The position numbers and the translations under genes were made by a program. A stretch of DNA of 47,561 nt from an uncultured Erysipelotrichaceae bacterium (GTDB lineage Bacteria > Bacillota_I > Bacilli_A > RF39 > UBA660): the NCBI GenBank assembly GCA_902783985.1, contig CACZTI010000061.1:1-47561 (forward strand), read 5' to 3'. Positions within the stretch are counted from its first letter, which is position 1. The number at the start of each line of letters is the position of its first letter. Below, piece by piece: positions 5,601-46,384 of the stretch. The notes under the pieces are model-generated. The model was not told the origin of the DNA and ran no database searches. It worked only from the letters and a program-made list of their open reading frames with translations.

Positions 5601-5816
5601 CAAGAAGAAGATAATATCAGTCATGGTATTATAGATTTGATGTTAGAATACTCCGATCACATTGATATTATAGATTATAAATTAAAACACATTGATGATC
5701 CTGCCTATATAAAACAATTAACAGGATATCAAGATTATATAAAATCATTAAAAAATAAACCCGTTAATATATACTTATATTCAATAATTGATAATATCTA
5801 TAAAAAGTTGAATTAG
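2688..5816 (+). CDS. addA: ATP-dependent helicase/nuclease AddAB subunit A (UvrD/Rep-type)
   Basis: LTKEQTLAVNEEGKNIIVSAGAGSGKT Walker A, DEYQDTS motif, C-terminal nuclease IIDLMLEY..IDIIDYK. The ORF opens at GTG 2679. ATG 2688 has GAAGG 8 nt upstream, so the start could be 2679, 2682 or 2688. Confidence 0.9.
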   Translation: MSNLTKEQTLAVNEEGKNIIVSAGAGSGKTMVLSTRVIRKIKDGTDIDHMLILTFTIAAANEMKARIRKNIKKNNLLEQLNKLDNSYITTFDSFFLSLVKKYHYVLNINKNVNIIESNILELKIKEYLNDILEEEYLKKDEYFTKLINDFCIKDDDEIRKAILSIYNKLNMKYNKVEYLNNYLDYFYSDTFIDNKIREYENYLKEKIEDYNILLTKLSNVTDADYFSKVIASSNDLLNSNTYKEIRENILKLEIPRLPNKSGEEATNIKNDIKKLTDEIKNLTENEDIISLKNDIQYTSNYTKPIIDIIKKLDDKINEYKKKNDLYDFVDINKMAIKIVKENENIRNEIKYYFNEIMVDEYQDTSDLQEELITLISNNNLYMVGDIKQSIYRFRNANPTIFKNKYDNYAKGNNGLKIDLLNNFRSREEVLDNINLLFKFIMSDDIGGANYIKDHQMIFGNTSYNQEGKTIQDNNMEIYHYDKDNDLLKKFKKEEIEAFIIARDIKEKVENHYQIFDKDEKILKDITYNDFSILIDRSTNFELYKKIFLYFNIPLSIYKDETLTNSDIFSVINSIIKFICIINDKPNLKDMNYLYLSIGRSFLFNIDDDTLFKVITLGTVKDTLIYQMINDIAQNIDNKTITNLLDEIIIKFDFYNKLRTIPNIRDNYTKIEYLYTLSNTLNKMGYTYKDFTGLIEEIFNSEKEIKFSVSKEENNSVKLMTIHHSKGLEYHICYFPGLYKQFNFKDILENFNYSKRLGIITPIFNDGISKTFYDYLNKNDYYNDEISEKIRLFYVAVTRAKEKMIFISSMKDKYEEYDKSGIVSDNIRRKYRTFDGLLESIKSHINPYIKEIDLNSLNLSKDYNLINSNNIFGNINNIQDKINIYNYELKETSEITESHYSKSNIKLITKEERDVMDFGTMMHYLLETMDLVNPDYTGIDDKYVNYIKKFLNNDLVKDIKKAKIYQEYEFIHQEEDNISHGIIDLMLEYSDHIDIIDYKLKHIDDPAYIKQLTGYQDYIKSLKNKPVNIYLYSIIDNIYKKLN

Positions 5817-5836
5817 AAGAGGAAACTCTTCTTTTC
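5815..5836 (+). terminator. Probable addA terminator
   Basis: AGAAGAG-GAAA-CTCTTCT hairpin overlapping the TAG stop, followed by TTTTCT. The U tract is short. Confidence 0.5.
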
Positions 5837-5837
5837 T

Positions 5838-5866
5838 AACACATAAATATAAAAGTGTGGTATAAT
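5838..5866 (+). promoter_or_regulatory. Extended -10 promoter for dxs
   Basis: TGGTATAAT (5858-5866) with a weak -35 AACACA 17 nt upstream. RBS AGGTGAT precedes ATG 5897. Confidence 0.5.
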
Positions 5867-5896
5867 GATTATTAATTGCATGTGAAGGTGATATAA

Positions 5897-7747
5897 ATGA
5901 TTTTAGACAAAATAAAAAATCCCAGTGATATAAAAAAATTATCTCTTAATGAAAAAAAGATATTATCTGAAGAAATAAGAGACATAATTCTTAAAACAGT
6001 ATCTGAAAATGGTGGTCACTTAGCTTCTAATCTTGGTGTTGTTGAACTTACTATTGCTTTATTATCATATCTCGATTTAGATAAAGATAAAATAATTTGG
6101 GATGTAGGGCACCAATGTTATACATATAAATTATTAACAGGAAGAAAAGATAAGTTTAATACTTTAAGAAAAACTGGTGGAATATCAGGTTTTCCCAGAA
6201 GTAATGAATCTAATTATGATTTCTTTGATGTGGGACATTCTAGTACTTCAATATCCGTTGCTTTAGGTATGGCACGTGCCATATCAATTAAAAAGGAAAA
6301 GAAAAAAGTAGTGGCTATCATAGGAGATGGAGCTCTAACATCAGGTCTTGCTATGGAAGCTTTAAATGATGCAGGAATTAGTAAAACTAATTTAATAGTC
6401 ATATTAAATGATAATAAAATGAGTATTTCTAAAAATACTGGTGGATTAAGTCAATTTTTATCACATCTTCGAACTAGAAAAACATATGTTAAATTAAATT
6501 CCATAATAAGAAAAATAGTTACTAATATTCCTTTTATTGGCAAATATCTATATAAAATAGTTGCATATATTAAAAAAAGAATTAAAGGTCTTTTTATCAA
6601 AAATATGTATTTTGAAAATATTGGATATACATACCTAGGTCCCGTTAATGGTCATAATATCTCGGATATGATTAATATCTTAAAAAGTACTAATAATATC
6701 GATGGTCCAATATTACTTCATGTAATAACAAAAAAAGGGAAGGGATACTTGAAAAGTGAACTAGAACCAAATAAATATCATGCAGTATCACCCTTTGATA
6801 TCAATAAAGGTTTAATAAATAAACATAATGAAACTTATTCTGATATTGTTGGCAATACTTTAGTTAAACTTGCTAAAAATGATAAAAGAATTGTTGCTGT
6901 AACTGCCGCAATGGCAGAAGGTACCGGATTAAGTAATTTCAAGAAGCATTATCCTAAAAGATTCTATGATGTTGAAATATGTGAAGAACATGCTTTAACA
7001 ATGTCTTCTGGTATGGCTAAAGAAGGAATGATTCCTTTTGTAGCGATATATTCAACTTTTATTCAAAGAGGATATGATGAAATAATCCATGATATATGTT
7101 TAAATGATTGTCATGTTGTATTATTAGTAGATAGAGCAGGTAATACAGGAAATGATGGAGAAACTCACCATGGTATATATGATTTATCTTTTTTAAAAAC
7201 AATTCCTAATTTAGTTATTATGGCCCCTAAAGATGCTTTTGAATTATATTTAATGATAAAATTTTCCATTAATTACCATCATCCTATTGCTATTAGATAT
7301 CCCAAAGGTAATATTATTAATATTAATGAAAATAAAAAAATATTATTAGGTAAAAGTGAAATATTAAAAGAGGGAAGGGATATTACTATTTTAGCAGTTG
7401 GCAAAATGGTTCAAAGAAGTCTTAATATATCACATAAATTATCTAATGATAATATTGATGCTGAAGTAATAAATATAAGGTTTATTAAACCATTTGATTA
7501 TGATACAGTAATACAATCATTCAATAAAACACATTTATTAGTAACAATAGAAGATAATGATTATGAATATGGATTTGCAGAAATAATTACTAAATATATA
7601 AACCAAGATAAAGTTAAATCATTTGGTTATCCAGATACCTTTATATCACATGGTAACATTTCTGATTTAGAAAAGAAATATCATCTAGATGAAGATAGTT
7701 TATACAATGAAATAATAGATTTTTATCAAAAAAATAAACAAGTTTAA
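5897..7747 (+). CDS. dxs: 1-deoxy-D-xylulose-5-phosphate synthase
   Basis: GGHLASNLGVVELTIAL, DVGHQCYTYKLLTGR, IGDGALTSG (ThDP motif), and a transketolase-like C-terminal half. Confidence 0.95.
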   Translation: MILDKIKNPSDIKKLSLNEKKILSEEIRDIILKTVSENGGHLASNLGVVELTIALLSYLDLDKDKIIWDVGHQCYTYKLLTGRKDKFNTLRKTGGISGFPRSNESNYDFFDVGHSSTSISVALGMARAISIKKEKKKVVAIIGDGALTSGLAMEALNDAGISKTNLIVILNDNKMSISKNTGGLSQFLSHLRTRKTYVKLNSIIRKIVTNIPFIGKYLYKIVAYIKKRIKGLFIKNMYFENIGYTYLGPVNGHNISDMINILKSTNNIDGPILLHVITKKGKGYLKSELEPNKYHAVSPFDINKGLINKHNETYSDIVGNTLVKLAKNDKRIVAVTAAMAEGTGLSNFKKHYPKRFYDVEICEEHALTMSSGMAKEGMIPFVAIYSTFIQRGYDEIIHDICLNDCHVVLLVDRAGNTGNDGETHHGIYDLSFLKTIPNLVIMAPKDAFELYLMIKFSINYHHPIAIRYPKGNIININENKKILLGKSEILKEGRDITILAVGKMVQRSLNISHKLSNDNIDAEVINIRFIKPFDYDTVIQSFNKTHLLVTIEDNDYEYGFAEIITKYINQDKVKSFGYPDTFISHGNISDLEKKYHLDEDSLYNEIIDFYQKNKQV

Positions 7748-9133: not shown

Positions 9134-9238
9134 TAGATAATAGTTTTTTCTTATAATTAACTTACAAAAACAATAAATTTACATAATACTCTAGATTTTC
9201 TTTAATTTATTTGATAAAATTAAATATGGTAGGCGATA

Positions 9239-10126
9239 ATGAAAGATACAATAAGTGATTATTTAGACTATATAACTTTAGAAAAAGGATTAACTGATAA
9301 TACTCGTGAAAGTTATGCCTTTGATTTAGCATGTTTTTGTAATAAATTTAATAATTATAAAATTAATCAAATTACAGAAAATGATTTAGTAAACTATCTC
9401 AAGTATTTAAAAGATGAAAAGAAATTATCTTCAAGAAGTATTGAAAGACACTTAACAACTTTAAGAGGCTTTTATAAGTATTTAAAAAAAATGAATATTA
9501 TTAATGAAGATATAACTAGTAATATTGATAATTTAAAGTTAGAAAAAAAATTACCAACTACCTTAGATTTAGAAGAAATAAATACTCTTATGAATATAAA
9601 ACTTGATACACCATTTAATATAAGAACCAAAGCTATGCTAGAACTTATGTATTCATCAGGATTAAGAGTATCAGAATTAGTTAGTTTGACAATAAATGAT
9701 ATTGATTTATATAATGATACCATTATTGTTAATGGTAAAGGAAGAAAAGAAAGAATAGTACCAATTGGTGCTGTTGCTAAAGAATCCTTAATTAACTATT
9801 TAAACTGTAGAAATGCTTTATTAAAAAGAAAAAAAGGTAATCCCAATGAATTATTTTTAAATAATCATGGTCTTGCAATAACAAGGAATGGTTTTAATTA
9901 TCTTTTAAATAATATTTTAAAAGAGAAGGGGATAGAGAAGAAAGTATCTCCCCATACACTTAGACATTCTTTTGCCACCCATATGCTTGATAATGGTGCA
10001 GATTTAAGAACTATTCAAGAATTGCTAGGGCACACTGATATTGTAACAACTAGAATATATACTCATGTATCAAAAAAACAAATTCAAGATAATTATAATA
10101 AATATGAAAATAGAGGTGAAAAATAA
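9239..10126 (+). CDS. xerD: Tyrosine recombinase XerD (RipX-type)
   Basis: LRHSFATHMLDNGADLRTIQELLGHTDIVTTRIYTHV catalytic region. The xerD-deoB neighbourhood matches the Bacillus ripX-drm arrangement. Confidence 0.85.
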   Translation: MKDTISDYLDYITLEKGLTDNTRESYAFDLACFCNKFNNYKINQITENDLVNYLKYLKDEKKLSSRSIERHLTTLRGFYKYLKKMNIINEDITSNIDNLKLEKKLPTTLDLEEINTLMNIKLDTPFNIRTKAMLELMYSSGLRVSELVSLTINDIDLYNDTIIVNGKGRKERIVPIGAVAKESLINYLNCRNALLKRKKGNPNELFLNNHGLAITRNGFNYLLNNILKEKGIEKKVSPHTLRHSFATHMLDNGADLRTIQELLGHTDIVTTRIYTHVSKKQIQDNYNKYENRGEK

Positions 10127-11289
10127 TGAAATTTAAAAGAATATTTCTAATCGTTTTAGATTCTATTGGTGTAGGAGCTAGTATTGATGCAGAAAAATAT
10201 AATGATAATAATGCCAATACCTTATCTCATTTAATTTCCCAAACAGATATTTTTATTCCTAATTTAAGGAAAATGGGCTTTATCAATACAATAACTATGG
10301 ATAATCAAGAAGCAGATGCATATTATACCATTGCTGAACCTAAAAACGATGGTAAAGATTGTGTTAGTACTCACTATGAAATGATGGGCATAACACCAAA
10401 TAAACCATTTGTAACATTTAACTATGGTCCTTTTCCAAGAGATTTATTGGAAAAAATTGCTAGTGTTACCAAAAAACCAATAGTTGGTAATATTATAAGC
10501 GATGCTTTAGGAGCAATAAATAGATTATATAAAAGACAAAGAGAAACTAATTCATTAATTATATATACAACAGGTGATTCTAATTTAGAAGTAGCTGCTG
10601 ATGAAGATATCATTTCTTTAAATGATCTATACATGTATTGTGAACAAATAAGAGATATTACTAAAAATGATAAATGGCAAGTAGCATCTATTGTTGCAAG
10701 ACCATTTAAAAATATTGATAATCAAATTGTCTTAACCGAAGATGCAAAATTATTTACTATTTCCCCTAATAATAAATCGGTTTTAGAATCTCTAAAAAAT
10801 AATAATTATCAAACAATATCAATTGGTAAAATCAATGATTTATTTAATGGAGTAGGGATAAACAAAATTATTAAATCGTCTTCAAATACTGAAGGTATAA
10901 ATAAACTATTGGATATAATGAATAAAAATTTTGAAGGATTATGCTATGTTAATTTAACTGATTTTGATTATTTATATGGTGCATCAAGAAATATTGATGG
11001 ATATAAAAAAGCACTAGAAGAATTTGATGTTCAAATACCTCTAATTTTAAATGAATTAAATGTTGATGATTTATTAATAATAACCAGTGATCATGGAAAT
11101 GATGTAACATTAGAAAATTTTAATCATACAAGAGAAAATGTACCTGTATTGATATATTCAAGAAGTTTTATCGAAAGTGGTCAAATAGATATATTAAACA
11201 CTCTTGCTGATATTGGAGCTACTATAGCTGATAATTTTGATGTTGAAAAGCCATGGATTGGTAATAGTTTCCTAAATAAATTAAAATAA
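10126..11289 (+). CDS. deoB: Phosphopentomutase
   Basis: N-terminal RIFLIVLDSIGVG and the metal site ITSDHGND. Its start overlaps the xerD stop. Confidence 0.9.
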   Translation: MKFKRIFLIVLDSIGVGASIDAEKYNDNNANTLSHLISQTDIFIPNLRKMGFINTITMDNQEADAYYTIAEPKNDGKDCVSTHYEMMGITPNKPFVTFNYGPFPRDLLEKIASVTKKPIVGNIISDALGAINRLYKRQRETNSLIIYTTGDSNLEVAADEDIISLNDLYMYCEQIRDITKNDKWQVASIVARPFKNIDNQIVLTEDAKLFTISPNNKSVLESLKNNNYQTISIGKINDLFNGVGINKIIKSSSNTEGINKLLDIMNKNFEGLCYVNLTDFDYLYGASRNIDGYKKALEEFDVQIPLILNELNVDDLLIITSDHGNDVTLENFNHTRENVPVLIYSRSFIESGQIDILNTLADIGATIADNFDVEKPWIGNSFLNKLK

Positions 11290-11304
11290 TTGTAGCGGAT
11301 TTAC

Positions 11305-11340
11305 TTCCCCTACTTTTTAATTATCATAAAAAAGGGGAGG
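11305..11340 (+). other. GC-cored hairpin after deoB (atypical terminator?)
   Basis: CCCCTACTTTTT, 9-nt loop, AAAAAAGGGGAG. No U tract follows on either strand. Confidence 0.3.
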
Positions 11341-11450
11341 GAATAATAAATTAATATGAATACGGCTATATAATATTTAATCCAATATTTCATAAATTTA
11401 TTATTATCATATAACTATAATATTTATAATTAATAGAAAATAATATATCT

Positions 11451-11735
11451 AAAACGATTCGAGTTTTAAATAATTGAATAATCATCCATCTTAAATATCA
11501 TTAGAAATTTATAAACCGTTTTTAAAACGATTCGAGATATCAATAAACGGATGATTATCCATCTCAAAGAAGATTAATAAAACGCTCTGTGACGATTCGA
11601 GATATAAATAGATGAATATTTATCCATCTAAATGAAGAATATTAAATAGCATCAAGATATGATATTAAAAATAATAAATTAATGTAAAACGATTTGATAA
11701 CTTAAAACATGAACAATTATAGAACTCAAAATATA
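11451..11735 (+). repeat. Intergenic array of three 38-bp direct repeats plus one degenerate copy
   Basis: Cores lie at 11454-11491, 11527-11564 and 11592-11629. Each has ACGATTCGAG, then 20 variable nt, then ATCCATCT. Spacers are 35 and 27 bp. A degenerate ACGATTTGAT copy sits at 11689. An extremely AT-rich tract follows at 11700-11880. Confidence 0.7.
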
Positions 11736-11887
11736 TAAAAAGATATTCATATAGTTATTATTAATAAAATATCATTAAATAATAATATTATATTAATATA
11801 ATATAAAAATATCTAATTATTCTTTAAAATATATCGTTTCTTATAATATATATTATGTTAAGTTCTATAAAAATAAATAATGATAGA

Positions 11888-12151
11888 TTATCCTCTATCA
11901 TTATTTTTATAATTATTGTTTTTATAATTATTATTGTAGTAATAATATTTTTTCTTTTTCTTTTTTTTAATCAACTCATCAACAGTTTCAGTATCTTTAG
12001 ATTCATCATTTTGTGATCTTTTTTCATGTCTTTTTTGAAATTCTTCTTTTTTCATTTTTTTTATCGTTATAAAAGATCCTATTATTACTGAAATAGTTGC
12101 CGCAATAAGAAATGTAAAATTCCATGTATCTGTAAAAGCTTCTAGTATCAT
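11888..12151 (-). CDS. Small membrane protein with one N-terminal TM helix and a low-complexity K/Y/N tail
   Basis: 87-aa ORF immediately downstream of the XRE gene. The TM segment is FTFLIAATISVIIGSFITI. Confidence 0.45.
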   Translation of the reverse strand: MILEAFTDTWNFTFLIAATISVIIGSFITIKKMKKEEFQKRHEKRSQNDESKDTETVDELIKKKKKKKYYYYNNNYKNNNYKNNDRG

Positions 12152-12175
12152 ATTCCACCCACTCTACTCTCTTTT

Positions 12176-12943
12176 TTATACCTTTCTTGTTTGAATTTCA
12201 GCTATTTTCTCAAACACTTCTTTGGCATTTGTTTCCGTTATAGTTGTATATCCAAGTTCTTTTAACGCTTGCATTTTAACACTGTTTAACTCTTGTGTTC
12301 TTGATAATTTTTCTTCATGTCTTTGTTCTATATCTCTTACAAATTTTTCATGTTGATCTTTAACTTTTCTTGTGGAAGCTCCCCCATTGTTATACAATGT
12401 AAAACCACTATACATTATACTTTCAAATAATATTTGTTGATCTTCATTATATATAAATTCATGAGGATTTGTAAAGCCATACATTTTGGAAACAAAACCT
12501 AATAAATACTTTAATTCTTTACTTGTTTCCATACTTTGTAAGAAATGATAAAGATATACAAAAGTATTATATGTTTCTTTAGTTTTATCATCTTTTAATC
12601 TATCTTTTAATAATGTTGTAATATCACTTAAAACCTCAATTTCTTTTCTATTAAATCCTTTTAAATCACCAAAATTACCAGTTGATAAGGCAACTTTAAC
12701 TCCTTCATTTAACTTATTATCAATTTTAATTATGAAATCACCATCAACAACTATATTATTAAGTTCTTCTGAATTTTTAATATCTAATAATTGCATTAAT
12801 CTTGTAGCTTTTTCACTTGGCCATTCATCTAAATTTTCACATGCTAAATAGTTGTATAGCATTTGTCTAGATACTCCCAAATATTTTGCAAGTCTAACTT
12901 TTGATACTCCTAATTCTTGTAATATATCATTTATTTTGCTCAT
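12176..12943 (-). CDS. XRE-family helix-turn-helix protein with an uncharacterised 190-aa C-terminal domain
   Basis: N-terminal LGVSKVRLAKYLGVSRQMLYNYL HTH motif. RBS GGAGGG lies upstream. Confidence 0.75.
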   Translation of the reverse strand: MSKINDILQELGVSKVRLAKYLGVSRQMLYNYLACENLDEWPSEKATRLMQLLDIKNSEELNNIVVDGDFIIKIDNKLNEGVKVALSTGNFGDLKGFNRKEIEVLSDITTLLKDRLKDDKTKETYNTFVYLYHFLQSMETSKELKYLLGFVSKMYGFTNPHEFIYNEDQQILFESIMYSGFTLYNNGGASTRKVKDQHEKFVRDIEQRHEEKLSRTQELNSVKMQALKELGYTTITETNAKEVFEKIAEIQTRKV

Positions 12944-20013: not shown

Positions 20014-20421
20014 TTAATTGGTATAATCTTTACATTTGTTAAAACGATTACATTTTAAACAAACATGATATTTAAGACCAGAAGTTCCTTTATCATTTAC
20101 TGCTTTTAAATATTCCACACGTACATAACTATCGCTGTTTACACAGTAATCACCGGCTTCATATGGATTATTAAATTTATCTATAGGTAAATTATTTAAA
20201 TATAATGTTTTAACATCTCCTGTATTCATTGGTTTTTCATTTCCATGCTCTAAAAAATACATTATTGTTGCTTCATGCATATTATCCATGTATGTTTCAA
20301 ATACTCTTTCAGCAGAAGTATTTTGATATGAAATATAAGATATCGTAGCTATTCCTCCAAGTAATGCAATAATAACAATTACTGCCAATAATTCAACTAA
20401 AGTATATCCTTTATTATTCAT
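20014..20421 (-). CDS. Small prepilin-type (class III signal) pilin/pseudopilin-like protein
   Basis: MNNKG|YTLVELLAVIVIIALLGGIA has G at -1 and E at +5. The C-terminal cysteine motif YHVCLKC is shared with the 1038-aa protein. The start overlaps the last codons of tkt, with AGGTGAT inside tkt serving as the RBS. Confidence 0.8.
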   Translation of the reverse strand: MNNKGYTLVELLAVIVIIALLGGIATISYISYQNTSAERVFETYMDNMHEATIMYFLEHGNEKPMNTGDVKTLYLNNLPIDKFNNPYEAGDYCVNSDSYVRVEYLKAVNDKGTSGLKYHVCLKCNRFNKCKDYTN

Positions 20422-22351
20422 GTTTATCACCTATCTCCTTAATTATTTTATTAGAAATTTCTATTTCGGTGAATTTAAAATGATTTAATAAATCCATTTT
20501 ATTACCTGTATCACCAAATTTATTCATACCAAATACTTTTCTTGTATAACCATAATAATAATCTTTAATACCATATGTTATAGCATAAACATTGTTTTTA
20601 GGAATAAGATGTTTCCGATTATTTAAATAATTCTTCTTACATGGCATACTAACAACTCTTGTATCTATTTTATTTTGATTTAATACTTCACTAACTTTTA
20701 AAGCTAAATGAACTTCTTCTCCATTAGCTAATAATGTTACAAATTTTCTTTTCTTTTCTTCTTTTATAATATAAGCGCCACTTTTTATATCAACCTTTTT
20801 TGATAATTCCGTATACTCTTTATTATCTCTAGGAAGTACTAAAACAGATGGATGTCTATTATTTAAAATATCCTTATAACATGCAATAAGTTCATTACTA
20901 TCACATGGACGATAAATATAAAGATTAGGAATAAGTTCAAGTGATGCCAATTGTTCTATTGGTTCATGAGTTATTCCATCTTCACCAACAGTAATAGAAT
21001 CATGAGTAAAAATATAAATTACTGGAAGATTCATAATAGCACTCATTCTAATAGCACCTCTTAAATAATCAGAAAAAACTAAAAAGGTACTACCAAAAGC
21101 TCTTAAATTAGATAGAGACATTCCATTCATTATCGCTCCCATAGCATGTTCTCTAATACCAAAATAGATATTTCTTCCACCATAATTATTACTATCAAAG
21201 ATACCTAAATCTAATAAATTAGTTTTACAAGATGATGAAAGATCAGCAGATCCTCCCATAAGTAATGGAAATTCCTTTGCTATATCATTTAATATTTTAC
21301 CAGAAATATCACGAAGTGAAGTATTATTTTCATGATAATTACTTTTCCTAAAATTATAAGTAATATCATTATTAAAAATCATATCTACTCTATCTTTATC
21401 AACTTGTTTTAAATTATTATAACTTCGATTAAAACTTCTTAATTTCATATACATTCTATTTTGAATTATTCCAACAAAATAATTACTTGAATCATTATCT
21501 AAATAGAATTCTTCATTTGGTATACCAAGTTTACTTTTTATATTTAAAATATCTTCCATATCAAGTGGTTTTCCGTGAGATATATTACTCCCTTCTACTT
21601 TAGAATATTTTCCAATAGTTGTTTTACATATAATAATATTTGGCATATCACTTGAAAAACATTTGTTTATAGCTTGTTCTATATCTTTAATACTATCACC
21701 ATCAACAACCAAAATATTAAAATTCAATGCTTTAAATCTCGTAATTATATCTTCACTACTGGTTCTTCCTAAATCACTATCTAGTGTAACGTTATTATTA
21801 TCATATAAAATGATTAATTTATTAAGTTTAAGTTTACTGGCTAAAGCAAGTGCTTCATAACTTATTCCCTCTTCTAAATCACCATCACCACATAAAACAT
21901 AGGTATAATGATTTATCAAAGTTTTATGGATAGTTTTATTCAAGTATCTTTCTGCAATAGCCATACCTACACTCATTCCAATACCTTGACCAAGAGGTCC
22001 TGTGGCTGCATCAACAAAAGGAATACTAAGTTCTGGATGTCCTTTTAAAACACCACCTAATTTACGAAAGTTTTTAACATCATCTAAACTAATTAAATGT
22101 AACATATAAAGCATACTGTAAAACATTGGAGCCCCATGACCAGCTGATAATATAAAACGATCTCTATTATACCAATTAGAATTATTTAAATCAATATTCA
22201 TAAATCTCGAATATAAAGTATAAAGAATTGTACTAGCTCCTAAACATATCCCAGGATGACCTGATTTAGCATGATTAATCATATCAAGAGATAAACATCT
22301 CATATTATTAATAACTTTATAATCTTCTTCATAAATATTTTTCTTACTCAT
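20414..22351 (-). CDS. tkt: Transketolase
   Basis: HAKSGHPG, GDGDLEEG ThDP motif, and Pyr and C-terminal domains. ATG 22351 is preceded by GGAGA. The ORF opens at 22378. Confidence 0.95.
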   Translation of the reverse strand: MSKKNIYEEDYKVINNMRCLSLDMINHAKSGHPGICLGASTILYTLYSRFMNIDLNNSNWYNRDRFILSAGHGAPMFYSMLYMLHLISLDDVKNFRKLGGVLKGHPELSIPFVDAATGPLGQGIGMSVGMAIAERYLNKTIHKTLINHYTYVLCGDGDLEEGISYEALALASKLKLNKLIILYDNNNVTLDSDLGRTSSEDIITRFKALNFNILVVDGDSIKDIEQAINKCFSSDMPNIIICKTTIGKYSKVEGSNISHGKPLDMEDILNIKSKLGIPNEEFYLDNDSSNYFVGIIQNRMYMKLRSFNRSYNNLKQVDKDRVDMIFNNDITYNFRKSNYHENNTSLRDISGKILNDIAKEFPLLMGGSADLSSSCKTNLLDLGIFDSNNYGGRNIYFGIREHAMGAIMNGMSLSNLRAFGSTFLVFSDYLRGAIRMSAIMNLPVIYIFTHDSITVGEDGITHEPIEQLASLELIPNLYIYRPCDSNELIACYKDILNNRHPSVLVLPRDNKEYTELSKKVDIKSGAYIIKEEKKRKFVTLLANGEEVHLALKVSEVLNQNKIDTRVVSMPCKKNYLNNRKHLIPKNNVYAITYGIKDYYYGYTRKVFGMNKFGDTGNKMDLLNHFKFTEIEISNKIIKEIGDKHE

Positions 22352-31894: not shown

Positions 31895-32644
31895 TTATTC
31901 ATCTAACTTTTTCTTTTTAGTTTCTTTCTTTTCTTCTTTTTTATTATCTTTATTCTTAATAGCATCTACTATTTCATTTCTTGTTTTAGTTAAGAAATAA
32001 ATAATGCATCCTGTTCCTGCTGCAATGAAAACAAAATTCCAAAAAATAATAGCAAAAGTACTACTACCATTACTTGATGATGTATTACTATAAGTATTGG
32101 CATTACCATTACCATTTTGACTATCATCTGTTGCTGGTGCTGTCCATGTTCCATCATCTAAACCTTGTAACTTTTCAAAAACATCCATATCTTTCTTATT
32201 GTATTCATTCATTATAGCTTCTTTTATTTGACTATCATAACTTTCAGTATAACCATCAAATACCTTACTTCCAATAATAACATATGGAACACCTTCTGTT
32301 GGAACATTGGTTACTTTAGACATTTTATTAAATAATGCACTATTCTCTTTGTCATTCCATACTTCAAAAGATACTAATCTAAAATACTTTCCATATTCTT
32401 TTGAAATAGAATTAATAAATGTTAAGAATTTACGACAAAATCCACATCCTTGTCCACGAAACATATAAACAATTGCTTGATCATTAGTTTCTTTATAATC
32501 CTTATTTTCAATTTCCATACCCTCTGCTTTTAATGTTTCAACTAAATTCATAGTCTTATAAGTATCATAATAAGTTTTAGCATTTGTAATAAATGGAACA
32601 GATATCATTACAACTGCTATTAATAATAAAATCTTTTTCTTCAT
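31895..32644 (-). CDS. Extracytoplasmic thioredoxin-fold CxxC protein with a signal peptide and C-terminal TM anchor
   Basis: MKKKILLLIAVVMISVPFITNA signal peptide, FRGQGCGFCRKF active-site-like motif, an N/S/G-rich linker, and TM helix FAIIFWNFVFIAAGTGCIIYF. GGAGG RBS. Confidence 0.7.
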   Translation of the reverse strand: MKKKILLLIAVVMISVPFITNAKTYYDTYKTMNLVETLKAEGMEIENKDYKETNDQAIVYMFRGQGCGFCRKFLTFINSISKEYGKYFRLVSFEVWNDKENSALFNKMSKVTNVPTEGVPYVIIGSKVFDGYTESYDSQIKEAIMNEYNKKDMDVFEKLQGLDDGTWTAPATDDSQNGNGNANTYSNTSSSNGSSTFAIIFWNFVFIAAGTGCIIYFLTKTRNEIVDAIKNKDNKKEEKKETKKKKLDE

Positions 32645-32717
32645 GTCATCCTCCATATTTAACACACATATAATTGTAAACTATTAGAAAAAAAAATACA
32701 AGATATTTTACAATATT

Positions 32718-36290: not shown

Positions 36291-37271
36291 TTATTCATAA
36301 GTAAAATTTAAAAAGTTATTTATATCAACTTTGTCTTCTAATGATTTAGGAAAAGTAACTCTTAATTTAGTATAATCATCAATCATTATGATATAATCAT
36401 CATATTCTACTTCTTTGTGAATAGTTGTATATAACCAAGCAACATAATCTTTAAGCATCAACTTTTTACTATTTTTAATAGTAAATGTAGTATTAATATT
36501 TTCATCTATTCCCTTTTGATCATAGTAAAAATATATGTTAATTAATTTATCGGAATCTTTATCAACTTTTAAAGATAGTATATTACCTTGATAATCATCA
36601 TTTTTTATATATTTTGATGGATTATAATTCAATTCAAAAGCCTTTTTATTATTGGCATGTAGATATAAATACCATTTTCCATCTTGGTTTAAATAATTAC
36701 TATCGTCTTTATATTTGTCCATATTGATTACTTCATTAATAAATGAATCACTAAAAGTCTTATTATTTATTTGATAACATACATAATAATAATGTTGTTC
36801 AAAAGCTTTAATAAATATATGTAATCGTTCATTATAACTACCATTTCTTAATTTTTTTTCTAAATAAATGATATTACCATTATCTAATTCATGTTTTAAA
36901 ACTACTTTGGAAGTATTTGATTCATCTGACAAATCTATTAAATTTAATATTTCATCATTATCCACAGCATTGTTGTATTTTAAAATATTAATATCGTTGT
37001 TATTATATTCCGTTATACTATTTATTATCTTATATAAGTACACATCTAAAGGTATAATATAAGATATCGCATTATCTTTATTAATAATTATTTTTTGGAA
37101 GGAACTTGCATTATATTTTTCAAATTTGATAGAAATATCCTCTTTATTTTGATATTCAGTAGTCCATAATAAAGTATTTTCACTATTGATTTCTTTAGTT
37201 AAGAGTAATATCGAAATAACAATCGATATTACTCCTAATAATCCTAAGATATAACTTATTTTTTTCATCAT
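36291..37271 (-). CDS. Membrane-anchored or secreted hypothetical protein, last gene of the pilin-like operon
   Basis: N-terminal TM/signal ISYILGLLGVISIVISILLL. AGGAG RBS lies 27 nt after the stop of the 1038-aa gene. Confidence 0.6.
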   Translation of the reverse strand: MMKKISYILGLLGVISIVISILLLTKEINSENTLLWTTEYQNKEDISIKFEKYNASSFQKIIINKDNAISYIIPLDVYLYKIINSITEYNNNDINILKYNNAVDNDEILNLIDLSDESNTSKVVLKHELDNGNIIYLEKKLRNGSYNERLHIFIKAFEQHYYYVCYQINNKTFSDSFINEVINMDKYKDDSNYLNQDGKWYLYLHANNKKAFELNYNPSKYIKNDDYQGNILSLKVDKDSDKLINIYFYYDQKGIDENINTTFTIKNSKKLMLKDYVAWLYTTIHKEVEYDDYIIMIDDYTKLRVTFPKSLEDKVDINNFLNFTYE

Positions 37272-37298: not shown

Positions 37299-40200
37299 TT
37301 AGCATGGGCTTCCACAAATCATACCATCAAAATTACCTGTTACAGGATCATGGCAAGTGGTAAGATGTTCTCTCTCACCACTACATGAACGAACACATCC
37401 TGTCCAACGATAGCATTCTTCTTTGATAGTTAATGTTGCCACATTTGATTCTGAAGACGTATTATAATTAGCATTTCCAGCCTTTCTTGCTTGTATTTCC
37501 CAAGTACCGATTTCTTTTCCGCAAGCGGTATTAGTTTTGTCCGAACTCCAAGCCGACCAAGAACCACCAACATTTCTCCATCTATATTCTGTGGTTAATC
37601 CTGATGTTCCACCAGTTTCTCCTATACAATGGGAATTACCATCTTTATCAAAAGAGGCATTAGATAACGTTGGGGCAGTTGGAGTAGCTTTATTTATTTT
37701 CCAACTTACTGAACATGATCCAGTATAGTTCCCCGAACCAGTACATGTATATGAATATGAATTAGCATTGGTTGCTGAGGTTGTTCCACTTGTTGCACTA
37801 CTTCCTGTTGGACATGATACTCCACTATTTTGTGATCCACCATTGTATGTTCTTGTTGCTCCTGTTGGACAACTTCCTATTGCTTTTGGATTTATTTTCC
37901 AACTTACTGAACATGATCCAGTATAGTTTCCCGAACCAGTACATGTATATGAATATGAATTAACATTGGTTGCTGAGGTTGTTCCACTTGTTGCACTACT
38001 TCCTGTTGGACATGATACTCCACTATTTTGTGATCCACCATTATATGTTCTTGTTGCTCCTGTTGGACAACTTCCTATTGCTTTTGGATTTATTTTCCAA
38101 CTTACAGAACAACTACTTGAGAATTTATATCCTGCATTTGATGTACAATTATGATAATATGTATTGGCATTTTGAGCTTTAGTAGTCCCACCGGCACTAC
38201 TTCCGCTTGGACATGTTACTCCACTATTTTGATCTGCGCCATTATATGTTTTATCAGCAGGACTTCCTGGACATGCAATGGTCATTCTATTTACTGTTGC
38301 TGTATACGTCTTACTTACTCCATTATAATTTGTTCCAGCAGCTTGCGTAATTGTTATTGTTGCCTTTTTACCATCAGCTGTTGTTGCTTGTGGGATTATT
38401 GTTAGAGTCTTTCCACTTACACTACATTTTGCAACAGATTGATCACTTGATGTACAACTTAATGCTCCATCTCCATCTGTCGTTATTGTTACTGTTCCGT
38501 TTGTTCCATATGTTAATGTCCCACTTGTTACATTTAAACTCATTGTGGTATTCTTTCTATTTATTTTCCAACTTACTGAACATGTATTCGAAAATTTATA
38601 TCCCGCGTTTGCTGTACAACTATGATGATATGTATTGGCATTTTTTCCTTTTAAATCTCCTCCTGCTGTACTTCCATTTGGACATGTTACTCCACTATTT
38701 TGATCTGCTCCATTATATGTTTTATCAGCAGGACTTCCTGGACATGCTAAAGTCTTTCTATTTACTGTTACACTATATGTTTTACTATTTGCAAGATAAT
38801 TTGCTGTTTCTGCTTGACTTACTGTTATTGTGGCAGTTTTATTATCTGCACTATTTGCTTGTGGTATTACTGTTAAAGTATTTCCACTTATACTACATTT
38901 TGCTACTGCTTGATCACTTGATGTACAACTTAATGCTCCATTACTATCTGTTGTTATTGTTACTGTTTCATTTGTTTCATATATTGCTATTCCACTTGTT
39001 TTACTTAATGACATATCTGGTAATTTTTTCTTTATATTACATACAAATGTCTTATCTGTTGTTGTTCCATCACTCCATGCTAATCCATATAATATTTTTG
39101 CTGTTACTGTATAATTTCCTGCATTTGTTCCTGTGTTATTTACAAATGTTACTCCACTTGGTGGGGCTACCGTTATTTTTTGACTCTTTGTATTATATGT
39201 TATATCATCACAATAAATATTCGTTGTTACATTTACTTTATCGGTATGTTCTGTCGTTAACATATGTGTCTTTTTTTGCGTTACTACTGTATTATTTGTT
39301 ACTTCACTTCCATTGTACATCCATTTTATTAACTTTTTATTATATATTCCTGGTAATTTATCTAAATATCCATATGGTTTTCCTGTTACTACTTCATATT
39401 GTTCGGTTGTTCCATCATCATATTTTAATGTTATATAATATGATACATCAAATTTACTACTTTTTTCTGTTTTATTTCCTACAACATCATATACTCTAAC
39501 ATTTAATTGATAACTTCCACTTTCTAACTTTTCATTGATATTATATACATTACTTGCTAATGTTTTATAATCACTATCACTACATGTTTCATTTGCTTTC
39601 TTTAGACAATATTCTATTTTTGATACTCCCATATCATCTTTGACATTATCTAATTTTATATTAACATTCTTTTTGTCTGTTCCATCTGTTATCGTATATC
39701 TATTTTCATTCTTTATTTCAAATGTAGGAGCATCTTTATCTATTTTGACATTGATTACTCTATCATCTGCTACTTTCTCTCCGTTTCTATTATAGGCTGA
39801 TACTAAATAACTTCCTCCATCATTGATTGTTATAGTACACTTCTTACTTACCGCTACACAATGATCATTTACTTTATCAATGCTATAGTATGCTATATCT
39901 TCTTTATCTAAATATAATTCTACTTGTATTCCTTCATTTATTACTTCAACGTTTTTATATGATAACAATGGATTATATCTAATTCCTGTATTTACTCTTT
40001 TTGCTGATACATTTATCGTTCCTGGTACATATCCTTGACAAAATTTTCCATCACTTTCATAATCTAAACATTTCAAACATACTTCATAATCATATGTATT
40101 GGTTACACTATCACGAAATACATAGACATCACCTTTTTCACATGTTCCACCTTTTTTATCTTTTACTGGTGATACATAATTACCACTTTCTAAGTTTTCT

Positions 40201-40415
40201 AATGCAACTATATTGTATCCCTTTATTGGTAATTCTTCACGATTCTTCTCGAAATATTCATTTCCTGATAATAACAAACTATTTTCTATTGTTTTATAAT
40301 AATTATCGCTTGCTGTATCAAAAATATAGTTATAACTTATTATTCCTATTCCTCCCAACAATGCAATAATTACCATTGTTACTATTAATTCAACTACTGT
40401 AAATCCCTTTTTCAT
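37299..40415 (-). CDS. Giant (1038 aa) prepilin-type N-terminal domain protein with Ig-like and cysteine-rich repeats; probable pilus-displayed or cell-surface adhesin
   Basis: MKKG|FTVVELIVTMVIIALLGGIG class III signal with E at +5. A pilin-like head ends in YEVCLKC. Big_2-like segments (SSDQAVAKCSISGNTLTV..ATITV) follow. The KTYNGADQNSGVTCP...CSVSWKIN module is repeated 4 times. The last 38 aa contain 6 Cys. RBS AGGTGA. Confidence 0.8.
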   Translation of the reverse strand: MKKGFTVVELIVTMVIIALLGGIGIISYNYIFDTASDNYYKTIENSLLLSGNEYFEKNREELPIKGYNIVALENLESGNYVSPVKDKKGGTCEKGDVYVFRDSVTNTYDYEVCLKCLDYESDGKFCQGYVPGTINVSAKRVNTGIRYNPLLSYKNVEVINEGIQVELYLDKEDIAYYSIDKVNDHCVAVSKKCTITINDGGSYLVSAYNRNGEKVADDRVINVKIDKDAPTFEIKNENRYTITDGTDKKNVNIKLDNVKDDMGVSKIEYCLKKANETCSDSDYKTLASNVYNINEKLESGSYQLNVRVYDVVGNKTEKSSKFDVSYYITLKYDDGTTEQYEVVTGKPYGYLDKLPGIYNKKLIKWMYNGSEVTNNTVVTQKKTHMLTTEHTDKVNVTTNIYCDDITYNTKSQKITVAPPSGVTFVNNTGTNAGNYTVTAKILYGLAWSDGTTTDKTFVCNIKKKLPDMSLSKTSGIAIYETNETVTITTDSNGALSCTSSDQAVAKCSISGNTLTVIPQANSADNKTATITVSQAETANYLANSKTYSVTVNRKTLACPGSPADKTYNGADQNSGVTCPNGSTAGGDLKGKNANTYHHSCTANAGYKFSNTCSVSWKINRKNTTMSLNVTSGTLTYGTNGTVTITTDGDGALSCTSSDQSVAKCSVSGKTLTIIPQATTADGKKATITITQAAGTNYNGVSKTYTATVNRMTIACPGSPADKTYNGADQNSGVTCPSGSSAGGTTKAQNANTYYHNCTSNAGYKFSSSCSVSWKINPKAIGSCPTGATRTYNGGSQNSGVSCPTGSSATSGTTSATNVNSYSYTCTGSGNYTGSCSVSWKINPKAIGSCPTGATRTYNGGSQNSGVSCPTGSSATSGTTSATNANSYSYTCTGSGNYTGSCSVSWKINKATPTAPTLSNASFDKDGNSHCIGETGGTSGLTTEYRWRNVGGSWSAWSSDKTNTACGKEIGTWEIQARKAGNANYNTSSESNVATLTIKEECYRWTGCVRSCSGEREHLTTCHDPVTGNFDGMICGSPC
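37693..38105 (-). repeat. Near-perfect 198-bp (66-codon) in-frame tandem duplication, about 2.1 copies
   Basis: Unit starts lie at 37693, 37891 and 38089. Copies 1 and 2 differ at 3 of 198 nt (one V/A change and two synonymous changes). Confidence 0.9.
38085..39020 (-). repeat. Older, diverged tandem duplication of a roughly 157-codon module (residues 466-620 and 621-777)
   Basis: The protein-level repeat runs from LSKTSG..TITTDSNGALSCTSSDQ..CSVSWKINRK to LNVTSG..TITTDGDGALSCTSSDQ..CSVSWKINPK. Confidence 0.8.
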
Positions 40416-40428
40416 ATCTCATCACCTA

Positions 40429-40953
40429 TTACATAAAATATATTAAACTAACAACCAATACCACTAAAAAGAAAACACTTATTAATAAAATTGATTTAAA
40501 TGAAGCAAAACCGGAATAAGCTGGAGTTAAACGTCCATTATCATAATTTAATTCATCATTTAACTTAAGATTTAATTCATTAATCTTTATAACTTTATTA
40601 TACAAACTATTTCTAATTTTATTAATATAACTAATATCAAAACCATTTAATTGTATTTTTCTACCATTTTTAAATTGAGCATAATACTTACAATAATCTT
40701 GTTTTCTATCATATTGATACTTTTCATCAACAATAACAGATGAATTCTTATAAAAACTTAATAAAGTATCAAGATTTTCATCAAATAAATCCATTGGAAA
40801 AAAGAAACAAGTTTTATTAGAACCACCTGAATTCATATTAAAATTAAATTCAATATTTTCATTTTTTTTAACAATTTTCATACTTGTTTTACAATCTTTG
40901 TTTTCTTTTCTAAAATATAAATTCATTATACTATATAAATATTCAATATTCAT
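40429..40953 (-). CDS. Tail-anchored hypothetical protein (C-terminal TM helix), coupled between ftsK and the giant pilin-like gene
   Basis: ATG 40953 lies after AGGTGGTG. The ORF opens at GTG 40962, directly abutting the ftsK stop. C-terminal ILLISVFFLVVLVVSLIYF. Confidence 0.55.
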   Translation of the reverse strand: MNIEYLYSIMNLYFRKENKDCKTSMKIVKKNENIEFNFNMNSGGSNKTCFFFPMDLFDENLDTLLSFYKNSSVIVDEKYQYDRKQDYCKYYAQFKNGRKIQLNGFDISYINKIRNSLYNKVIKINELNLKLNDELNYDNGRLTPAYSGFASFKSILLISVFFLVVLVVSLIYFM

Positions 40954-43352: not shown

Positions 43353-43380
43353 ATTTAAAAAAAATACTTAGAAAAGTATT
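43353..43380 (-). terminator. Terminator of the two-gene unknown cassette
   Basis: AATACTT-TTCT-AAGTATT on the minus strand overlaps the stop codon and is followed by T8. Confidence 0.7.
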
Positions 43381-43909
43381 ATTTTACTTTTTTAAGTATT
43401 TTATGATTATCTTCATATTGATCATTTATGATTAATAAAAATTTACTAATATCCCATGATACATTTTGATTATCAATAATTCTTTCATATTTATTACTGT
43501 TATTAATTAATATTTTTAAAATTTCACGAAAACTAATTGATGTGAAAAAATATTCAGAAGATTTTTCGAAAGCAATATTTTGACCATTAGGATTATATGT
43601 CAATATACCATTTTGATATATAAATGTACCCTTAATAATGCTTTCAGGATCTCTTAATATAATAACATTATTTTTAATATCATATACCATCATTCCCATC
43701 GCAGGACTATCACATTTATAAAAAATATTTTGAAATTTCTTGATATCTTCTTGATTTTGAAAATCAAAGTTCTTCAATATCTTTTCAGGAATATAATCTA
43801 CATAAACATAGTGTTTATCAGTATTTTTTATTTTATCAAATAAATTTTCATTTTCAAGAATATTTATTTCATCAATTTTAATTATTTTATCATTATATAT
43901 TTTTTTCAT
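43379..43909 (-). CDS. Hypothetical 176-aa cytoplasmic protein
   Basis: ORF with AAGAAAGAGG-like RBS. I recognise no motifs. Confidence 0.55.
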   Translation of the reverse strand: MKKIYNDKIIKIDEINILENENLFDKIKNTDKHYVYVDYIPEKILKNFDFQNQEDIKKFQNIFYKCDSPAMGMMVYDIKNNVIILRDPESIIKGTFIYQNGILTYNPNGQNIAFEKSSEYFFTSISFREILKILINNSNKYERIIDNQNVSWDISKFLLIINDQYEDNHKILKKVK

Positions 43910-43938
43910 AATAACCTCTTTCTTATAATAATTTTATT

Positions 43939-44733
43939 CTATTTTTTTAAAACTTTTTCTTTATTTTCTTGAATAAAATTCGCATAGTGTTTTCCAATTC
44001 TTTTATAGCCCCTAATTCCATTTAAATAAAAATTTATTATTTCTGTAACCCTTATTATTTCATTATAACTTCTTCCTTTTATCATACCCAAATCATTTAT
44101 TTTATTAATCATATATGAACAATATTCTTTCATCATTTCAATATCAATATCTAAATTATTATAATTAAGATATTCTAAAGAAAATAATTTGATGAATAAT
44201 TCTGTAATAATATCTTCATTATTAATACTTAACTCTTTAATAGCTACAATAATACTTTTATATAAATTTAATATTTCTTTATTACCACTAATAATATAAT
44301 CATTATCATATGTTTTATCTAGTTCTTCAATTTTATCTAAATAATTATATTGATATGCACCATCATAACCTGTATATATTTTATAATTTTTCATATTTCT
44401 CATATGTAAATTAATATCTGGTATATCAACATTGATAATTGTCGATAATTCTTTATTTAACCTATCATGATTATGAACTATTGTGTCTTGATTATATAAA
44501 CCAACATTATTAAAAGAATGGTAATCAATAACATCTTGAAATATTAAATCTTTTAATTCTAAATACATTGTACGATAATCTTCATCAGTAAAATTTTTAA
44601 AAATATTTAAAAATAATTCTTCTCTTCTTGTAAAATAATCTGACATATATAATTCTTTAACTTTATCCCTAATTTTATTAATCCACCAATAACTAGTAAT
44701 TTCAAAGGGATTTAAATCAAATTTATCAAACAT
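43939..44733 (-). CDS. Hypothetical 264-aa cytoplasmic protein
   Basis: ORF with GGGAG RBS. I recognise no motifs. Confidence 0.55.
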   Translation of the reverse strand: MFDKFDLNPFEITSYWWINKIRDKVKELYMSDYFTRREELFLNIFKNFTDEDYRTMYLELKDLIFQDVIDYHSFNNVGLYNQDTIVHNHDRLNKELSTIINVDIPDINLHMRNMKNYKIYTGYDGAYQYNYLDKIEELDKTYDNDYIISGNKEILNLYKSIIVAIKELSINNEDIITELFIKLFSLEYLNYNNLDIDIEMMKEYCSYMINKINDLGMIKGRSYNEIIRVTEIINFYLNGIRGYKRIGKHYANFIQENKEKVLKK

Positions 44734-45881: not shown

Positions 45882-46355
45882 TTAATTATTTATTTCTTTC
45901 ATCATTTGTTTTTTTATTGAATCTATATCTGTAAAAAATAAATTAATACCCCTAGTTTTTAATTTCATTAAATATTCAAAATAATATAAAATTTCTTCTT
46001 TTATTGATTCAACAACTTTAGCAGGTTTACCATCACTTGTTAAGTGAATATGATCAATATATTTTTCTAATGTTGGAAAAGCATTTTGTAATAAAATAAC
46101 TGATTTTTCACCTAAAATTTCTCTAATTAGTATTGTATCACATCTACCAAATTTCTTCATTTTATTATCAACTATTTTTTTATACTTATCAACTTTACTA
46201 CTTAATGGAATAAACCACAAAATATCTCCTTCTTTTATTGTAAAATATGTGGGTCTCTTTTTACCCCTTTCATGATTAGTCATTAAATTTTTATCATTTA
46301 CAATATCAAAAAATTCATCTTTTATATGATATAAGTATCCTGTTTGAATTTCCAT
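45882..46355 (-). CDS. Type III toxin-antitoxin toxin, ToxN/AbiQ-family endoribonuclease
   Basis: Collinear with ToxN/AbiQ as I recall them: YLYHIKDEFFDIV, KKRPTYF, WFIPLSSKVDKY, LLQNAFPT. ATG 46355 follows AGGAGAT. The ORF opens at 46376. It is preceded by an RNA repeat array and a terminator. Confidence 0.75.
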   Translation of the reverse strand: MEIQTGYLYHIKDEFFDIVNDKNLMTNHERGKKRPTYFTIKEGDILWFIPLSSKVDKYKKIVDNKMKKFGRCDTILIREILGEKSVILLQNAFPTLEKYIDHIHLTSDGKPAKVVESIKEEILYYFEYLMKLKTRGINLFFTDIDSIKKQMMKEINN

Positions 46356-46384
46356 AAAACCATCTCCTATTGACATTCTAACAC

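Follow-up and report, generated by a model that had tools for sequence, protein, structure and literature searches.

A 1038-residue prepilin with a cysteine-rich modular stalk in an uncultured Erysipelotrichaceae bacterium: a candidate fibrillar adhesin

The gene and its product

We analysed a stretch of 47,561 nucleotides (contig CACZTI010000061.1 of assembly GCA_902783985.1, hereafter the window) from an uncultured Erysipelotrichaceae bacterium, in which a gene at 37299-40415 on the minus strand encodes a 1038-residue protein with a class III (prepilin-type) signal at its N-terminus. The gene and the segments into which its product can be divided are as follows.

37299-40415, minus strand: modular prepilin gene, 1038 amino acids (aa), complete, stop codon at 37299-37301; a family of homologues exists.
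40332-40415, minus strand: class III signal and hydrophobic helix alpha1N (aa 1-28), with leader MKKG, F(+1) and E(+5).
40032-40415, minus strand: pilin head module (aa 1-128), with helix 7-57, a small beta-sheet, invariant C92, C113, C116 and C126, and the motif YEVCLKC.
39426-40031, minus strand: two beta-sandwich (immunoglobulin-like, Ig-like) modules (aa 129-228 and 229-330), all beta, with an AlphaFold2 predicted local distance difference test (pLDDT) score of 74-92; conserved base.
39012-39425, minus strand: small beta module (aa 331-392) and ancestral two-cysteine 'YNG...NAG.Y...WSDG' module (aa 393-468), with strands in the AlphaFold2 model; end of the conserved base.
38277-39011, minus strand: A-B unit and second A; A is a two-cysteine Ig-like module (aa 469-556 and 627-713) and B1 a four-cysteine module (aa 557-626); AlphaFold2 pLDDT 80-92.
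37680-38276, minus strand: four-cysteine modules B2, B3 and B4 (aa 714-780, 781-846 and 847-912), from a module hidden Markov model (HMM).
37416-37679, minus strand: distal module E (aa 913-1000), with GGSWSAWS and two cysteines, common to the relative P0002 by side-by-side reading; AlphaFold2 confidence low to medium.
37302-37415, minus strand: C-terminal tail of 38 aa with six cysteines (1001, 1007, 1011, 1021, 1034 and 1038).

The ATG start codon is preceded by an in-frame TGA two codons upstream and by a Shine-Dalgarno sequence, GGTGA, 7 nt to its 5' side. The N-terminus reads MKKG/FTVVELIVTMVIIALLGGIGII, with the cleavage site before F(+1). The protein passes the TIGR02532 model (20.2 bits, cutoff 16.3) and falls slightly short of Pfam N_methyl (PF07963, IPR012902; 19.2, cutoff 21.2); all eight of the relatives from metagenome-assembled genomes (MAGs) that were tested score above the Pfam cutoff. 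Residues G4, F5, T6, E9 and L10 are invariant in the family alignments A2 and A4. Among 113 relatives that are pairwise no more than 50% identical, position -1 is glycine in 107 and alanine in five, position +1 is phenylalanine in 110 and position +5 is glutamate in 112. As judged from these alignments, the cleavage motif is under strong selection throughout the family.

The ComG pilin models of NCBIfam gave no match, and only the N-terminal motif matches PRK10574 and PRK10506, far under their cutoffs. Neither comGA nor comGB was found near the pilin gene among the window's open reading frames (ORFs). On sequence criteria the protein does not class as a ComG pseudopilin. Its C-terminus (...GNFDGMICGSPC, ending ...MICGSPC) has neither an LPXTG motif nor a hydrophobic tail.

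The initial annotation of this locus had described a cysteine-rich ORF of 1038 aa with a prepilin signal, more GC-rich than its surroundings. The ORF list and the TIGR02532 score bear out the ORF and its signal, and the cysteine content (38 cysteines, 3.66% of residues, where the window's 39 other ORFs average 0.99%) is the highest in the window. The density was also held to be unusual for an exported Gram-positive protein, which agrees with the report that exported proteins of Firmicutes usually avoid cysteine (PMC2823432). The GC content of the gene is indeed elevated (32.3%, with neighbours at 19-31% and the genome at about 23%), but it says nothing of origin: the excess is confined to codon position 2 (0.478), and GC at codon position 3 (GC3) is 0.121, against 0.09-0.15 in housekeeping genes. 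The excess at position 2 comes from a composition rich in Thr, Ser, Gly, Ala and Cys, not from gene transfer. A foreign origin deduced from GC content was thus rejected, because GC3 equals that of the host genes.

The head as a pilin module

A profile built from 13 head sequences (A3) was searched against all PDB sequences and matched type IV pilins only, save for one borderline match (HIV Vpu, E=0.21). The match to Neisseria PilE (8p3b, E=5.5e-8) runs to profile position 96, past the hydrophobic helix; Streptococcus sanguinis PilE1 (8pfb_G, E=1.7e-7) ranks third, and Geobacter PilA was also matched. In the AlphaFold2 model the head (pLDDT 82) forms a helix at residues 7-57 followed by two to three strands, as expected for a small pilin module, and E9, the E(+5) of the signal, lies within this helix. 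The head is 33% identical to the product of a second, small prepilin gene in the window (20014-20430), with which it shares the same four cysteines, including the Y.VCLKC motif. Judged by these profile matches, the head is a true pilin module. It had been called pilin-like from inspection alone, and a profile search that returns solved type IV pilins puts that description on firmer ground.

The small prepilin gene has the following place and features.

20014-20430, minus strand: small prepilin of 135-138 aa, MNNKG/YTLVE...YHVCLKCNRFNKC (YHVCLKC), Pfam N_methyl E=2e-7; the gene overlaps the 3' end of tkt.

The family of this small pilin has a constant length (127-141 aa), and the tkt-pilin arrangement is kept at four other loci (L028, L059, L060 and L061; L and P numbers are our handles for loci and proteins of relatives). 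By sequence, its product classes as a paralogue of the giant's head, and it is a candidate for the major pilin that builds the filament.

Anatomy of the stalk

The structure prediction proposed in the initial annotation was made with AlphaFold2 on a 14-sequence family alignment (mean pLDDT 68). The head and the modules as far as about residue 715 could be modelled with confidence as a string of beta-sandwiches following the head, but the model is poor beyond that point, where the alignment is shallow, and the C-terminal tail stays below a pLDDT of 30. About 11 beta-rich modules follow the pilin head in all. With the whole model as query, Foldseek found nothing but generic rods of several Ig-like domains (cadherins, S-layer proteins, DSCAM and GhpA). 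The module at aa 229-330 matches Big_3_2 (23.6 bits, cutoff 23.3) and Big_13 (E=1.9e-5); together with the model, these matches give a body of Ig-like, adhesin-type modules where Ig-like segments had been read from the sequence.

The module that closes the conserved base (aa 393-468) aligns both with the B modules and with cysteine-free copies in the non-pilin surface proteins P0020 and P0021. From there the modules follow the order A-B-A-B-B-B (aa 469-912). The four modules with fixed cysteines that had been noticed at the outset were recovered by the HMM at aa 557-626, 714-780, 781-846 and 847-912 (E values of 1.7e-41, 2.5e-41, 9e-34 and 2e-33 for B1 to B4). To these the present analysis adds the two interleaved two-cysteine Ig-like modules, the two-cysteine ancestral copy at aa 393-468 and the prepilin gene at 20014-20430. 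At the DNA level the older A-B unit is repeated at a spacing of 471 nt with 79% identity, and a 198-nt tandem repeat at 37692-38087, which corresponds to B3 and B4, is 98% identical: B3 and B4 are a recent tandem duplication. One relative, P0001, equals the window protein but for N883T and a 19-aa deletion (aa 848-866, in B4) between two SCPTG motifs. This deletion may reflect repeat slippage, which would leave an odd number of cysteines, or a tandem repeat of 98% identity that collapsed during assembly.

Assignment of the B modules to MBG_2 or YDG (PF18676 / PF18657) was considered and rejected, since the B modules alone gave no Pfam match at E<=10; MBG_2 and YDG do occur in other segments of relatives. 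The B module is thus an unnamed module type.

Distal module E likewise gave no Pfam match at E<=10. The sequence GGSWSAWS...ACG in this module, and CSWSAWTTTACSGNNCQTRTVYRTR in a MAG relative (in the tails at L008), are reminiscent of WSXWS or thrombospondin-type repeats, a likeness that is unverified. A thrombospondin-like reading of SWSAWS and of the relatives' tails was rejected, as TSP_1 was found neither in the window segment (Pfam, E<=10) nor in eight relatives (E<=0.01). The last 38 residues had been called a six-cysteine terminal knot. The six cysteines are there, but the knot is interpretation, given a pLDDT below 30 and the lack of any family match to the tail. Cysteine-dense tails recur among the relatives with differing sequences.

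Relatives and turnover of the distal end

A word-indexed search turned up some 15 relatives, every one of them an unnamed metagenome protein. Searching exhaustively with an HMM of the first 468 aa yielded 169 clusters (50% identity) at E<=1e-30. Among the representatives listed, 84 have the class III motif and at least 450 aa; their median length is 940 aa and their maximum 2751 aa. Profile scans of genome and metagenome contigs gave at least 18 and at least 30 relatives, respectively, mostly ordinary pilins matched through the generic N-terminal pattern. The matches in GTDB are MAGs mostly labelled uncultured Bacilli, with single records labelled Mycoplasma sp., Clostridia, Muribaculaceae and CAG:884 (GC 25-32%), and the contigs of the family are uniformly low in GC (24-32%). 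Common as it is in metagenomes, the family carries no annotation beyond the N-terminal motif, and a literature search returned no paper on such a pilin family.

Within the family, identity is 43-76% in the head and 29-60% in the base (aa 129-468), and the sequences are often unrelated past residue 468, a region in which MBG_2, YDG, Flg_new, cadherin-like or Bact_surface_Ig-like domains are found in relatives. The contig L003 is near-conspecific with the window genome (RuvB 98%, RuvA 95% and FtsK 90% identical). Its pilin, P0005, is 73% identical in the head and 57% in the base, and its distal 570 aa are without detectable similarity to the window pilin. With the distal half unrelated here, the outer end is seen to be replaced among near-conspecific genomes, a pattern that an exposed adhesin or antigen would be expected to show.

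L055 (10001-10399) encodes, just upstream of dnaE, a complete pilin of 132 aa that consists of the head only (P0121), and a family member of 1669 aa lies upstream of dnaE at L004 (10001-15010), with one gene between; the same head thus occurs with and without grafted modules before the same gene. At L005-L013 (for example L008 9992-15675 and L013 7499-15320), two to three large cysteine-rich prepilin genes stand in tandem, encoding 479-1582 aa with 22-64 cysteines. Each of these tandem genes is usually followed by a small gene whose product has an N-terminal transmembrane (TM) segment, and several of the prepilins end in ...TC[CW]H[LNY].

Cysteines as probable disulfide pairs

An even number of cysteines is found in 67 of the 84 large family members (binomial p=3.5e-8), and truncation or mis-assembly may account for some of the odd counts. 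When 26 copies of B-type modules were aligned, C2 and C3 were always present or absent jointly, and C1 accompanies C4 or an alternative position close by, so that the pairs predicted within each B module are C1-C4 and C2-C3; B-type copies in non-pilin proteins are without these cysteines. The bias towards even counts and the pairwise gain and loss within modules argue for disulfides: the cysteines of the family behave as disulfide pairs, and the stalk is probably disulfide-braced.

The product of a gene 5 kb downstream of the pilin gene (31895-32665, minus strand) is thioredoxin-like and exported: it has a signal peptide and the active-site motif CGFC, together with a C-terminal TM anchor and a tail rich in Lys. 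It is kept at L059 and L060 and is 46% identical to its L059 counterpart. A role as an extracytoplasmic thiol-disulfide oxidoreductase for the cysteine-rich pilins is possible.

Gene neighbourhood

The genes around the prepilin gene run in the order ftsK, orf174, pilin, orf326 and tig. The two small genes that flank the pilin gene are as follows.

40429-40953, minus strand: orf174, a small tail-anchored protein; its Shine-Dalgarno sequence, AGGTGG, overlaps the ftsK stop codon.
36291-37271, minus strand: orf326, whose product crosses the membrane once, through an N-terminal TM segment, and ends in ...FLNFTYE; Shine-Dalgarno sequence AAGGAGA, 27-nt gap from the pilin gene.

The initial annotation had placed the pilin gene in a translationally chained operon with ftsK. 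The chain itself is real: 9, 13 and 27 nt separate ftsK, orf174, the pilin gene and orf326 in turn, every gene has a Shine-Dalgarno sequence of its own, and a terminator scan found no terminator-like site from ftsK to the end of tig. A promoter scan was uninformative in this AT-rich DNA (114 sites against 102 expected). The order from ftsK to tig is kept at L003 and L057, but the chain carries no functional meaning. At L059 and L060, ftsK is followed by orf177 (45% identical to orf174) and then by ylbF-like and rsmD genes, with no giant pilin, and at L053 and L058 the pilin-orf326 pair stands without ftsK, directly 3' of IS110-family transposase genes (L053 8410-9693; L058 749-2032). Taken together, these arrangements make the linkage to ftsK incidental, and a functional operon with ftsK was rejected on their account. 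By comparison of these loci, orf174 belongs with ftsK and not with the pilin gene, which travels with orf326. The IS110 transposases 5' of the pair in two close relatives suggest that the cassette moves within the lineage, and mobility of the pilin gene within the lineage is likely. Distant members of the family lie elsewhere, after rpsR at L001 and before dnaE at L004.

Homologues of orf326 that are 25-49% identical lie directly 3' of the pilin gene at L003 (12859-13836), L057 (4410-5375), L058 (5184-6170) and L053 (12374-13405). The orf326 family has 321-343 aa, an N-terminal TM segment and an invariant C-terminal ...FLN(F/I)TYE. For orf326 we found no Pfam or credible PDB relative, and its weak matches to toxin A repeats look compositional. 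The idea of a conserved downstream partner across the wider family was rejected: outside the close subfamily the downstream genes share the N-terminal TM topology and no detectable similarity.

Other observations concern the rest of the window. Small ORFs of unassigned function lie among ruvA, ruvB and ftsK (43379-44733 and 45882-46376, both minus strand) and are poorly conserved or absent at L003. Compared with L003, orf176 keeps 32% identity, orf264 lacks any counterpart that matches, and in place of the 164-aa ORF between ruvA and ruvB there is only a 100-aa gene (sequences not compared), although the flanking RuvB is 98% identical. Small accessory genes turn over fast in the window genome. 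The cumulative GC skew peaks at about 11-12 kb (window about 9200-12200), where the genes switch from the plus to the minus strand; a gene for a XerC/D-type tyrosine recombinase (9239-10126) lies at this switch, with ftsK 30 kb away. The region of the peak could be the replication terminus, or the peak could be a mere effect of gene orientation.

Discussion

We consider it moderately probable that the gene encodes a modular type IV pilin working as a fibrillar adhesin. The signal, the pilin head, the base of about 340 aa, the stalk of Ig-like and 'YNG' modules, the replaced distal end and the paired cysteines are the established parts of this proposal. The precursor would be inserted in the membrane through the alpha1N helix and cut after Gly4 by a prepilin peptidase encoded elsewhere in the genome. 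The exported modules would fold outside the membrane, braced by disulfides, and the CGFC thioredoxin-like protein (31895-32665) may assist in this. The pilin head would then be taken up by type IV filament machinery, and because of its bulk the giant pilin would most probably be the first, tip-located subunit of a filament made of a small pilin such as 20014-20430. From this position the stalk, about 11 modules long, would hold the variable C-terminal modules out past the cell wall for ligand binding. The initial annotation had put forward a giant minor pilin or tip adhesin, or else a cell-surface protein using the prepilin pathway, and both fit the head profile, the conserved motif, the modular body and the genes at L004.

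Several observations weigh against the modular pilin adhesin. Pfam searches of the ORFs and tblastn with PilC and PilD found no T2SSE, T2SSF or Peptidase_A24 in the 47.6-kb window, in agreement with the earlier remark that PilB, PilC and a prepilin peptidase are missing from it, and no assembly genes were found near the family gene at the other loci examined, L004 excepted. There, T2SSF and Peptidase_A24 genes (4270-6446) form an isolated pair between pheT and a gene for a UvrD-like helicase, 4 kb upstream of the 1669-aa member and with no ATPase gene adjoining. That assembly genes lie near a family gene only at L004, and there among housekeeping genes, suggests that the pilus genes are scattered in these genomes. 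With the head model, the best Foldseek match is an S. sanguinis pilin chain (8pfb_C; E=0.28, template modelling score 0.33), which is not significant. No ligand-binding domain of the von Willebrand factor A (vWA) or lectin type, and no ligand, was recognised for the 1038-aa protein. The two to three giant paralogues in tandem at several MAG loci suit an anchored surface repertoire no less well than a single tip subunit. We know of no direct precedent for a protein of more than 100 kDa that crosses the wall on the tip of a filament.

The class III signal could instead be cleaved while alpha1N stays in place as a membrane anchor, with no polymerisation; the stalk of about 11 modules would then cross the wall itself, and the prepilin pathway would serve as a route of display. 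In this it would recall the class III sugar-binding proteins of the Sulfolobus bindosome. Such a reading is possible, if rather doubtful. The gene is orphaned from assembly genes at almost every locus, large paralogues stand in tandem arrays of two to three in MAGs, and the dedicated membrane partner orf326 is kept beside the gene. Class III proteins outside filaments are known in archaea, as far as the description in PMC3047682 goes. The layout of anchor, stalk and tip also resembles that of fibrillar adhesins, and the stalk would in principle be long enough for a Gram-positive wall, by its inferred length. Against such an anchor stands the glutamate at +5 that is kept in 112 of 113 relatives: in the systems studied, E(+5) is needed for filament assembly and not for cleavage. 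Nor does the anchor sit easily with conservation of the whole head, beyond the helix alone, or with the paralogy of the head to small stand-alone pilins.

Two further alternatives fare worse. If the product were an uncleaved type II membrane protein, with the N-terminus a signal-anchor and the prepilin-like motif a relic, this would accord with the lack of a prepilin peptidase in the window and with the Pfam N_methyl score slightly under its gathering cutoff. A relic would drift, though, whereas 107-112 of the 113 relatives, all below 50% identity, retain G(-1), F(+1) and E(+5); near-invariance among sequences so diverged argues strongly against a mere uncleaved anchor. The TIGR02532 score above its cutoff, the eight of eight MAG relatives above the Pfam cutoff, the Peptidase_A24 gene near the L004 relative and the second prepilin gene in conserved synteny all point the same way, and we regard this alternative as improbable. 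The gene could also be recently acquired foreign or mobile DNA (from a phage or by horizontal transfer) with no role in the pilus biology of the host, as its GC content above that of its neighbours, the IS110 transposases adjoining the pilin-orf326 pair in two relatives and the ftsK-orf177 locus without the pair at L059 and L060 would allow. Against this stand a GC3 at the level of housekeeping genes, with the excess at codon position 2 only, the paralogy of the head to a core small pilin in conserved synteny and the low GC (24-32%) of all contigs with family matches, which leave a foreign origin very improbable indeed.

Returning to the modular pilin working as an adhesin, its nearest likenesses can be sought among known systems. 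Modular pilins are widespread (more than 1,200 proteins in 264 architectures) and have been proposed to lie at pilus tips (PMC8179133), and the studied examples are S. sanguinis PilB, with a vWA module, and PilC, with a lectin module (Raynaud et al. 2021, PMC8179133; Shahin et al. 2023, PMC9934059). The present protein likewise joins an N-terminal pilin module to non-pilus modules (Big_3_2/Big_13, the string of beta-sandwiches and the 'YNG' module common to non-pilin proteins), which is what makes a pilin modular. With PilB and PilC it shares a monoderm host, a short class III leader, a small pilin module with grafted modules and a proposed role as tip adhesin. S. sanguinis pilins of known structure also rank high in both searches, as the third-ranked profile match (8pfb_G) and the best, though non-significant, structural match (8pfb_C). 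PilB and PilC, however, have one extra module and roughly half the size, compared with about 11 modules and 1038 aa here and up to 2751 aa in the family, and their genes lie within the pil locus, whereas the present gene is an orphan among housekeeping genes. Unlike them, the present protein is cysteine-rich, with the even-count bias of its family, and no vWA or lectin domain was recognised in it.

Among multi-repeat modular pilins, the largest that the 2021 survey cites is a Candidatus Falkowbacteria protein of 860 aa that contains 12 IPR013211 motifs (PMC8179133); it resembles the present protein in having a pilin motif followed by many repeated modules. It differs in repeat type and phylum, and the present family has in addition a 340-aa base, swapped distal modules, paired cysteines and sizes up to three-fold larger. 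CofB of the type IVb pili of enterotoxigenic Escherichia coli and ComZ of Thermus also join a pilin domain to extra beta-rich domains and have a known or proposed location at the tip, but they come from diderm hosts and pilus operons, and their extra domains number one or two; we detected no similarity to them in sequence, and the structural match to ComZ (E=2.4) is insignificant.

Resemblances also reach beyond pilins. LPXTG-anchored fibrillar adhesins have a similar rod of Ig-like modules, module types in common and a variable distal end; the present protein has an N-terminal pilin anchor in place of the C-terminal LPXTG, so that its polarity is reversed, and a cysteine content far above the usual level of exported Firmicute proteins. 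The class III sugar-binding proteins of the Sulfolobus bindosome, compared here by their description in the literature, are likewise large functional proteins on the prepilin pathway that are not classical subunits (PMC3047682). As described there, they differ in being archaeal solute-binding proteins with a dedicated Bas assembly system and no Ig-like stalk (PMC3047682). The concept of a modular pilin is already established; what sets the present protein apart is the size, the number of modules, the 340-aa base, the orphan site with a private partner, the swapping of distal ends and the paired cysteines.

A broader proposal, which we advance only tentatively and hold to be slightly more doubtful even than the non-polymerised anchor, is that in this very AT-rich lineage of uncultured Bacilli the pilin module serves as a general anchor for a repertoire of giant, disulfide-braced, module-swapping adhesins, each with a small membrane partner such as orf326 and mobile as two-gene cassettes. 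If true, it would mean surface display through the prepilin pathway instead of sortase, and a clear exception to the 'cysteine exclusion' of Firmicutes.

Modular pilins are a recent concept with few studied examples, each with one extra module, and the present family extends it to rods of ten or more modules and about 2750 aa. The cysteine pattern implies extensive extracellular disulfides in a phylum noted for keeping cysteine out of its exported proteins. If carried on filaments, these proteins would be candidate host- or partner-binding adhesins of uncultured Bacilli; if anchored in the membrane only, they would show bacteria putting the prepilin pathway to another use. In both cases the family offers testable targets in the cleavage of the signal, the disulfides, the localisation of the protein and the role of orf326.

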